Source of the DNA: a virus
Reading direction: 5' to 3' (one strand)
Virus record (IMG/VR): IMGVR_UViG_3300045988_129435
DNA: 64,000 nt
Shown: positions 41,824-42,237 of the stretch, one piece after another
Layout of the letters: each line of letters starts with the position of its first letter
Position numbering within the stretch: position 1 is the first letter of the stretch
Notes under the pieces: model-generated
Told to the model about the DNA's origin: nothing
The model's database searches: none
The model's input: only the letters and a program-made list of their open reading frames with translations
Position numbers and translations under genes: made by a program

Positions 41824-42237
41824 AGGTATATTAATGTCTTACTCGGTAAAGGTGATGAATGCTGCATAGTTTAGCCCTTAGAGGATTTTACGCCTCTTGG
41901 CTATAGCAGCATTCAAACAGTCATTGCTCGTATAAAGTACGCCGTTTTTAGCTGGATGGCATTAACAAGTCACCATCTTCCCGGACTTTTCGCTTACTTG
42001 TCGCTGTGAAGGCACTCCGGTTTCGTTCGCCTCTCGATTTCTCACATCCACGCAGTATCGAGTTTTAGGAGTACAACCCTCTGTCTCTCTGCTTATGCAG
42101 CCTACCGCCGATTGTACAACTGGCTTTAAAAAGAAAGCCTCGTAATAGGTACGGGCTACTACGAGGCAATCATATATAAACTCCAGAAGGAGAATACTTA
42201 GTAAATGTCAGGTAACATTCCGTACTTGTTACGGATG

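Follow-up and report, generated by a model that had tools for sequence, protein, structure and literature searches.

A conserved structured RNA predicted behind a short leader and terminator in temperate phages of Bacteroides and Phocaeicola

What fills a gap of about 400 nucleotides (nt) between the terminase and portal genes of a phage when that gap holds no sizable open reading frame (ORF)? The question is raised by the IMG/VR virus record IMGVR_UViG_3300045988_129435, a stretch of 64,000 nt that we call the window. A first-pass annotation, made from the letters of the stretch, had proposed that positions 41824 to 42237 hold a G+C-rich, structured, perhaps riboswitch-like leader RNA. As it had stated, no ORF of at least 60 amino acids (aa) overlaps 41824-42577 on either strand (the longest there are 34, 53, 34, and 35 aa), and its hand count of about 46% G+C for 41881-42180 agrees with the computed value of 0.46. 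The G+C content is 0.471 in the core of the element (41837-42125), compared with 0.276 in the adjoining spacer (42246-42477) and 0.38 in the whole window. Homology, covariation, and a strand test point to a conserved structured noncoding RNA read from the minus strand, which upholds the central claim of that annotation. Its picture of one leader of about 400 nt needs correction: a predicted intrinsic terminator at 42167-42128 separates a leader of about 110 nt from a core of about 290 nt, here called core-1, and the two reassort independently.

When we compared the window with 50,697 phage records by blastn, 41837-42245 alone matched, with identities of 76 to 77% to Bacteroides phage LoVEphage, Phocaeicola phage PV4-TP1, and Bacteroides phage BI-TP1. 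At the DNA level, the terminase, 91-aa ORF, and portal sequences on either side went unmatched. Further copies came from exact-word scans of IMG/VR, GTDB genomes, and human-gut metagenomes. The GTDB matches fell in nine species, nearly all of them Bacteroides or Phocaeicola, and an nhmmer profile gave 172 hits (103 distinct sequences). The core-1 element occurs in about five sequence subtypes, and the locus L230 has 99.9% identity to the window. Every partial copy is truncated at a contig end, and all other copies have the leader together with core-1. Three more exact-word scans of IMG/VR for distant core-1 homologs returned the same five subtypes. Core-1 had no match in plasmids, and no additional G+C-rich, ORF-free segment was found in more distant relatives. 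From these matches, the element appears to be common to temperate gut phages of Bacteroides and Phocaeicola, among them LoVEphage (MW660583, our locus L001), the most common temperate phage in gut viromes, with a detection rate of about 8% across 1,241 viromes and a share of up to 64% of the reads in one (PMC12629997). That prevalence raises the interest of the element.

The structure was derived from an alignment of 23 representatives (A3), for which RNAalifold predicted 84 pairs; double compensatory changes were present in 17. A curated structure has 78 pairs in 12 helices, two of which cross, and its pairs are formed in 98.4% of cells, compared with 30 to 40% when the 3′ partners are slid by 1 to 3 columns. 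Covariation among homologs, which the first-pass annotation had named as a check, is present: double compensatory changes occur in 18 of the 78 curated pairs, and the covariation score is 0.211, values that none of 500 shuffles reached. Within core-1, nine pairs have double changes. Read on the opposite strand, the curated pairs fall to 88.9% paired, and 171 cells are G·U; the RNA is therefore that of the minus strand of the window. The folding of single sequences, compared with shuffles, gave z scores of −2.8 for the minus strand and −3.0 for the plus strand, a modest advantage that is alike on both strands, so that thermodynamics alone proves little. It is conservation and covariation, not single-sequence folding, that settle the case for a structured RNA. 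A coding region is excluded by one-nucleotide indels between subtypes and by short ORFs that differ from one subtype to the next.

Core-1 is made up of the following parts, all on the minus strand.

41836-42122, minus: core-1, a conserved structured RNA domain of about 290 nt (alignment A3, RNAalifold, and pair counts)
42108-42120, minus: junction GUUGUACAAUCGG at the start of core-1; (U)ACAAUCGG is the only sequence that core-1 shares with core-2, a second RNA described below
42117-42110 with 42078-42071, minus: helix P1, with partner arm GGGUUGUAC at 42079-42071
42100-42089, minus: helix P2
42062-42057 with 42038-42033, minus: helix P3
42032-42010, minus: helix P4
42020-42016 with 41985-41981, minus: helix P5
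41977-41955, minus: helix P6
ACAAGU 42001-41996 with ACUUGU 41970-41965, minus: proposed loop-loop pairing P7
41944-41922, minus: helix P8
41914-41857, minus: helix P9

Compensatory replacements preserve P1 (GUACAA/UUGUAC to GUGUAA/UUACAC or AUACAA/UUGUAU), P2 (CUGC/GCAG to CCGC/GCGG), P3 (CUCGAU/AUCGAG to CUCAAU/AUUGAG), and P6 (GAUGG/CCAUC to GAUAG/CUAUC or GUCGGG/CCCGGC). The CCGGA/TCCGG stem that the first-pass annotation had picked out is P5 (CCGGA/UCCGG to CCUGA/UCAGG, with the compensatory change of G-C to U-A in L037 and L075). Because P5 crosses P4, it makes a pseudoknot, one of two proposed in core-1. The long hairpin at 41914-41857 was also predicted correctly: its outer stem is invariant, and its inner AGAGG/CCUCU becomes ACGG/CCGU in the LoVE type. 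Both that outer stem and the two P7 hexamers are invariant in A3, and their pairing comes without covariation support. The hexamers lie in two separate loops and could form a second tertiary or an intermolecular contact. Core-1 also has conserved junctions, and its many invariant unpaired bases suggest that it may bind a conserved host or phage factor.

The first-pass annotation had not recognized the class of RNA, and Rfam 15 did not supply one. We searched its 4,227 models, including riboswitches, RNase P, tmRNA, 6S, group I and II introns, ROOL, GOLLD, HEARO, C4, EAR, and Bacteroides small RNAs. At the gathering threshold, the whole window returned one tRNA only. With E values of up to 10, searches of three core-1 subtypes (41500-42700 of the window, L001 3950-4470, and L047 440-961) gave in-element scores of 10 to 18 bits at best, against gathering thresholds of 47 to 110, and ARAGORN found no tRNA or tmRNA in the region. 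Two known classes were considered and set aside. GAAAAGUCCGGG resembles the CR-I motif of RNase P, but there was no model hit, and the segment with which it pairs is found upstream and not at the 3′ end. A self-splicing intron is contradicted by flanks that are noncoding or hold unrelated genes, by relatives lacking the RNA that have other genes in the slot and no joined exon, and by the absence of group I or II hits.

Upstream of core-1 lie a candidate promoter and a leader of three hairpins.

42238-42245, minus: Bacteroides-type −7 box TATATTTG (consensus TAnnTTTG); T-A-N-N-T-T-T-G invariant in 23 of 23 aligned homologs
42212-42234, minus: H1, 5′ leader hairpin, with loop GUACGG (42225-42220) complementary to the terminator loop
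42177-42200, minus: H2, middle leader hairpin (UAAG..CUCC-UUCU-GGAG..UUUA; RNAalifold, 98.3% paired)
42128-42167, minus: H3, intrinsic terminator, a 12-bp stem (42167-42137) followed by U-run UUUCUUUUU (terminator scan)

The TAtaTTTG box had been read as a promoter directed toward the 91-aa ORF, and its invariance among homologs bears this out. The motif by itself is frequent (89 copies in the window against 70 expected), so support for the promoter comes from its conservation. Transcription would start just after the box. In LoVE-type loci, the −7 box stands back-to-back with a TAATTTTG box for a divergent repressor gene, as read from alignment A2.

The leader, about 110 nt long, ends in the terminator. 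The stem of H1 covaries (GUAAC/GUUAC, GUAAUA/UAUUAC, and GUUGC/GCAAC), and that of H2 does so as well, with CUCC/GGAG replaced by CCUC/GAGG in the B type; an A/U-rich single strand joins the two. The stem GCCTCGTA/TACGAGGC seen in the first pass belongs to the 12-bp hairpin at 42167-42137 that precedes UUUCUUUUU. Its stem has six G-C pairs, and its sequence varies by subtype while pairing is kept, with double changes in 9 of 11 stem pairs. H3 is the best-scoring terminator-like site of the region, its U·G wobbles assign it to the minus strand, and an architecture that fits the definition of an intrinsic terminator is kept in all subtypes despite their different sequences. The GGCTTT/AAAGCC stem proposed earlier found no support: it shares bases with the terminator arm and the U-run, and other subtypes have not kept it. 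A mini-ORF, AUG-AUU-GCC-UCG-UAG, lies over the terminator arm of the window type and was considered as a leader peptide; it is not found in the LoVE or B types.

The H1 loop complements the terminator loop in every leader type, both loops changing together across about 10 types. Although no part of the leader varies more than this loop pair, its two members match in nearly all copies. In the window, the terminator loop is the 7-nt CCCGUAC (42155-42149), which holds the complement CCGUAC (42154-42149), so the cognate pair is GUACGG/CCGUAC; others are GUACGAG/CUCGUAC, GUGCGAG/CUCGCAC, GUGCAAG/CUUGCAC, GUAGCAG/CUGCUAC (LoVE), and CUGCAC/GUGCAG (B type). The L361, L379, and L345 types have cognate versions of 10 to 15 nt (AAGUAGAGCGG/..CGCUCUACUU, AAGUAGAGAGG/..CUCUCUACUU, AAGUCAAGCGG, and AAGUCAGACGG), among which a C-G to A-U double change occurs in many loci. 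Contiguous Watson-Crick complementarity of 6 to 15 nt is present in all nine leader types compared, with duplex energies of −17 to −42 kcal/mol, compared with only about 1.7% of noncognate loop combinations that reach 6 nt. In the window-like group, 43 to 50% of loop columns are variable, against 12 to 21% in the leader downstream of the H1 loop and 14% in the core; promoter-proximal columns 24 to 46 are variable as well, at 39%. A match that persists in such hypervariable loops suggests that molecules recognize one another in a type-specific way. Complementarity in the L361 and L345 types reaches 13 to 15 nt into the 5′ arm of the terminator, which is the geometry of an antiterminator; the predicted long-range duplex of L361 reaches −41 kcal/mol, compared with about −18 kcal/mol for the two hairpins. 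As judged from sequence, the leaders thus appear to have the defining part of an attenuator, an upstream segment that is complementary to the terminator arm or loop and mutually exclusive with the terminator. The GUGCAAG loop type adjoins four different repressor families, and one repressor family adjoins three loop types; this uncoupling argues against a role of the loops as operator sites.

Elsewhere in the window (62143 to about 62030, minus strand), a second TATATTTG promoter precedes a terminator-like hairpin, and a KilA-N/Bro-like gene (61327-62052) lies downstream. The hairpin loop ACAACCC complements a 5′ segment, GGGUUGU, in a gate-like design, but a 7-nt match could be due to chance.

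Leader and core do not travel as a unit. In the B-type loci (L047, L071, L078, and L005), core-1 is 93% identical to that of the window, whereas the leader and terminator have the same architecture and are unrelated in sequence; this identity is maintained between loci whose flanks do not align. Retrieval of loci through a conserved early helix-turn-helix (HTH)/Xis-like protein yielded leader-only loci and loci with core-2, and no divergent core-1. Core-2 is an unrelated structured RNA of about 375 nt in the same slot, identified at L356 3526-3900 and in 59 IMG/VR contigs (L402-L459). It is highly conserved, with 98 pairs predicted by RNAalifold, 6 of them showing double changes, and it had no Rfam hit and no match in isolated phage records. 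Core-1 and core-2 never occur in one locus. The same leader types precede core-1, core-2, or a protein gene directly (L366 and L379-381), which points to the leader and terminator as a general early-leader device of this phage group. On this sequence comparison, the large RNAs appear to be exchangeable cargo behind it.

A few loci have unusual arrangements. The entire promoter-leader-core unit is tandemly duplicated at L008 3907-4913 (the same as L384), part of the leader and the 3′ arm of the terminator are deleted at L274 4727-5107, and core-2 in L419, L423, and L433 has its promoter directly at the terminator, without the 5′ hairpins.

The placement between terminase and portal genes, noted in the first pass, is true of the window and exceptional among the loci; the usual site is the early lytic promoter by a CI/LexA-like repressor gene or a position upstream of an antirepressor gene. 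In LoVE-type loci and most others, the cassette and a divergent CI/LexA-like repressor gene stand back-to-back, with 20 to 70 nt between the −7 box and the start codon of that gene. The cassette reads into an early operon of HTH, RecT, and exonuclease genes, an arrangement that makes it the analog of PR. The first downstream gene in L103, L020, and L023 is a Rha/Ant-like antirepressor. In L024, L037, L217, and L299, the cassette and an antirepressor gene (PHROG anti-repressor, E = 4e-38) form a moron in the late region, at a site corresponding to about 29.2 kb of the window. The element thus occupies three unrelated genome positions. Core-1 is always upstream of a co-oriented gene, at a distance of 14 to about 300 nt from the next ORF, and that gene is highly variable: an antirepressor, many unrelated small ORFs, or the 91-aa ORF.

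In the window, the cassette arrived as an insertion among genes that are all on the minus strand.

41833-42477, minus: 645-bp window-specific replacement without a protein gene, made up of the GACACA repeats, the promoter, the leader, and core-1
42323-42441, minus: seven copies of GACACA (plus-strand reading TGTGTC) that form two clusters, one of 3 and one of 4, phased at about 12 nt
42488-42550, minus: two terminator-like hairpins closing the TerS-TerL transcription unit (terminator scan)
44594-44103, minus: TerS gene
44119-42578, minus: TerL gene, followed by the gap and then the 91-aa ORF
41548-41823, minus: 91-aa ORF, with its ATG 12 nt past the last base of core-1; no Pfam or PHROG family match
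41366-39969, minus: SPP1-type portal gene

Alignment by blastn with the relatives L393, L396, and L398 breaks at 42477/42478 and resumes at 41824-41832, and the two terminator-like hairpins are the last sequence held in common before the insertion. Relatives L393 to L398, which have the same TerL gene, 91-aa ORF, and portal gene, encode two or three small ORFs in the 645-bp slot. Since homologs of the 91-aa ORF precede the portal gene in relatives without the RNA, that ORF is ancestral at the locus and lies outside the cassette. The GACACA array is the sole such cluster in the window; as the relatives do not have the repeats, these came with the insertion. Lying upstream of the promoter, they may be a binding array for a protein or regulator.

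Other features of these genomes were also observed. In L393 to L398, at about 6.2 to 7.6 kb of each locus, another variable slot after the portal block holds genes for Tad2-like proteins or Sequestin (an anti-defense sponge), which shows that these phages use the region for accessory cargo; the corresponding window junction (39660/39662) is without such an insert. The element is missing from the immunity region that the window phage itself has near 60.1 kb. Two copies of the palindrome CAAGTTATAACTTG, which are probably operators of this phage, lie at 60044-60220 between a Cro/CI-type HTH gene (60221-60502, plus strand) and minus-strand early genes. By coincidence, the half-sites of this palindrome, ACAAGT/ACTTGT, have the same sequences as the invariant hexamers in the loops of core-1. 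A tRNA-like gene at 47289-47359 (minus strand) scores 50.5 bits with the Rfam tRNA model; ARAGORN gives it no anticodon, and its anticodon stem, UUGGC/GCCAA, encloses only six bases, AUUCCA.

How might such a cassette work? Our best guess, which we hold tentatively, is an RNA-gated payload expressed by read-through. A Bacteroides-type promoter would drive a portable three-part cassette from 42245 to 41836 on the minus strand. Most transcripts would end at the leader terminator, releasing a short, hairpin-ended leader RNA, and loop-loop pairing would set how often polymerase reads through. Pairing might take place within the nascent chain, in competition with the terminator, or with leader RNAs made earlier, which would free the terminator to fold. 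The logic of the gate would be that of type-specific RNA immunity, as in c4-ant of P1 and P7, the CI RNA of P4, and plasmid countertranscript attenuators. Core-1 would be the payload, an independently folding RNA made by read-through only, at the onset of lytic development, and would act as an accessory RNA "gene" rather than as a sensor for the next ORF. We can only speculate that core-1 acts in trans, and on the identity of a partner. A payload role is favored by the exchange of core-1 with core-2 or with nothing, the variable downstream gene, the insertion into a cargo slot, the duplication in L008, and the conserved unpaired bases.

Several observations weigh against this interpretation. 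We infer the transcription start site, termination, read-through, and RNA stability alike. In the window type, the loop match is 6 nt long, and the two hairpins (about −26.5 kcal/mol) are favored over the long-range duplex (−17.3 kcal/mol), so the interaction would be a kissing contact and not a full antiterminator. Single-sided loop variants show no clear preference for G·U over mismatches, which leaves the RNA-level reading of the loop match to rest on context and not on wobble. In the window, core-1 is not followed by a terminator and ends 12 nt before the ATG, so that it is physically also the 5′ untranslated region (UTR) of the 91-aa ORF. No evidence points to a partner for core-1, and a strong terminator inside the LoVEphage early operon suits an antitermination mechanism.

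That alternative, which we consider possible though on the unlikely side, is that core-1 works in cis as an RNA for processive antitermination, comparable in function to HK022 put, Bacillus EAR, or conAn2 of pLS20. The nascent core would modify polymerases that have passed the leader terminator, and these would then transcribe through later terminators of the long operon. The core does head long co-directional operons (the early operon in LoVE-type loci, the head and tail genes in the window), and the LoVEphage terminator, a 12-bp stem with a U-run at L001 2063-2090, lies about 2 kb downstream between a gene for a 233-aa protein and the exonuclease and RecT genes; with an internal terminator in a co-directional early operon, LoVEphage probably needs some antitermination mechanism. 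There is a precedent in conAn2 for a large leader RNA of this role in a mobile element (PMC8191782), and the invariant unpaired bases would suit binding to the host RNA polymerase that all these phages share. However, predicted intrinsic terminators downstream of the core in the window number 11, compared with 11.3 expected, with none strong on the sense strand, and eight core-containing contexts showed no terminator enrichment, while relatives lacking the core do have internal terminators. Moreover, the moron cassettes of L024, L037, L217, and L299 precede a single antirepressor gene and then convergent genes, and close relatives manage with core-2 or no RNA. A 5′ UTR sensor, riboswitch-like or protein binding, that controls translation, stability, or Rho-dependent termination of the next gene seems to us quite improbable. 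The large pseudoknotted domain, its highly conserved junctions, and its constant place ahead of a co-oriented gene (in the window, it ends 12 nt short of the ATG) would fit a sensor, but the downstream gene differs in nearly every context, with no association with the genes of one pathway; the spacing to it varies from 14 to about 300 nt; there is no conserved expression platform; the sole terminator precedes the conserved domain; and no riboswitch family matched. The riboswitch-like layout suggested in the first pass is therefore one that we do not retain.

We rate as very improbable the view that the conserved sequence acts as DNA, with the inverted copies in the leader as operators and the core as an origin, attachment, or packaging site. 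H1 and the terminator are indeed inverted copies of each other at the DNA level, the element adjoins repressor and integrase genes in LoVEphage, and repeat arrays flank it in the window and L024. Against this stand the G·U cells and the loss of pairing on the other strand (from 98.4% to 88.9%), compensatory changes throughout the core, a U-run after the hairpin, loop types that are uncoupled from the repressor family, and the three unrelated genome positions. To a decayed protein-coding gene or a functionless G+C-rich spacer we give practically no credence: the GenBank annotation of LoVEphage does place three short hypothetical ORFs over the element, but these are unconserved between subtypes, which differ by single-nucleotide indels and by compensatory stem substitutions, and the core is 93% identical where flanks do not align. 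An extension of the read-through-gated payload, which we would call unlikely as it stands, is that core-1 and core-2 are RNA-only cargo genes that can replace each other. Their effector RNAs (decoys or sponges of a host defense or regulatory factor, for instance) would appear at the very start of lytic development, gated by a leader whose hypervariable matched loops would add a second, RNA-based layer of immunity specificity apart from that of the protein repressor. If true, both the class of phage RNA effector and the kind of heteroimmunity determinant would be new, and they would occur in the temperate phages most prevalent in the human gut.

The element is undescribed in the literature that we covered on LoVEphage, Bacteroides prophage structured RNAs, and antitermination; a 2026 preprint on mining noncoding RNAs with genome language models was outside this coverage. 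It could be present, unnamed, in a 2023 catalog that lists over 10,000 candidates for structured RNAs of viruses. In the GenBank records inspected, the region is unannotated or lies under short hypothetical ORFs, and in annotation it should not be called hypothetical proteins. To our knowledge, transcription attenuation and phage regulatory RNAs have barely been described in Bacteroidota, and the hypervariable matched loops offer a testable handle on RNA immunity or attenuation in this phylum. A large conserved RNA that separates the repressor gene from the early lytic genes is an obvious candidate for a missing layer in the induction decision of gut prophages, and core-1 (about 290 nt) and core-2 (about 375 nt) are well-defined large RNAs for structural and functional work.

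A payload RNA gated by read-through can be compared with several known systems. The c4 and CI RNAs of P1, P7, and P4 are encoded in a leader, are complementary to other sites of the same leader, act in a type-specific manner, terminate transcription early or block expression, and are associated with antirepressors. The present leader shares with P1/P7 c4-ant and P4 CI RNA the type-specific complementarity within the leader of a lytic or antirepressor operon, as well as the association with antirepressors. Unlike them, it has no sequence or model match to these RNAs and no evident RNase P-type processing signal; the pairing partners are the loops of a 5′ hairpin and an intrinsic terminator, and a large extra RNA domain follows. 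The attenuators of pT181, pIP501, and pAMbeta1 and the kissing loops of R1 and ColE1 likewise involve loop contacts between RNAs, terminator formation that depends on them, and hypervariable matched loops. In those systems, however, the antisense RNA comes from the opposite strand, whereas here both partners are on the same strand and in the same leader.

Lambda PR′-6S RNA-tR′ resembles the cassette in having a promoter closely trailed by a terminator, which yields a short RNA unless overridden; lambda uses Q protein loaded at the promoter and has neither complementary loops nor a large RNA domain. Put, EAR, and conAn2 are structured RNAs near the start of long mobile-element operons, and conAn2 is also large (PMC8191782). 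Core-1 differs from these in showing no homology to them, in its position behind a terminator, in the lack of excess downstream terminators, in its single-gene contexts, and in being dispensable in close relatives. ROOL and GOLLD, like core-1, are large, highly structured RNAs borne by phages, and the invariant ACAAGU/ACUUGU of core-1 could in principle mediate multimerization; core-1 is smaller, has no Rfam match, and lies behind a promoter-terminator gate at lytic-switch promoters rather than beside tRNA genes. RNA leaders that govern the lytic genes of phages are familiar as a kind; what is new in the cassette is its fold, its matched-loop terminator gate, and its swappable large RNA domains.

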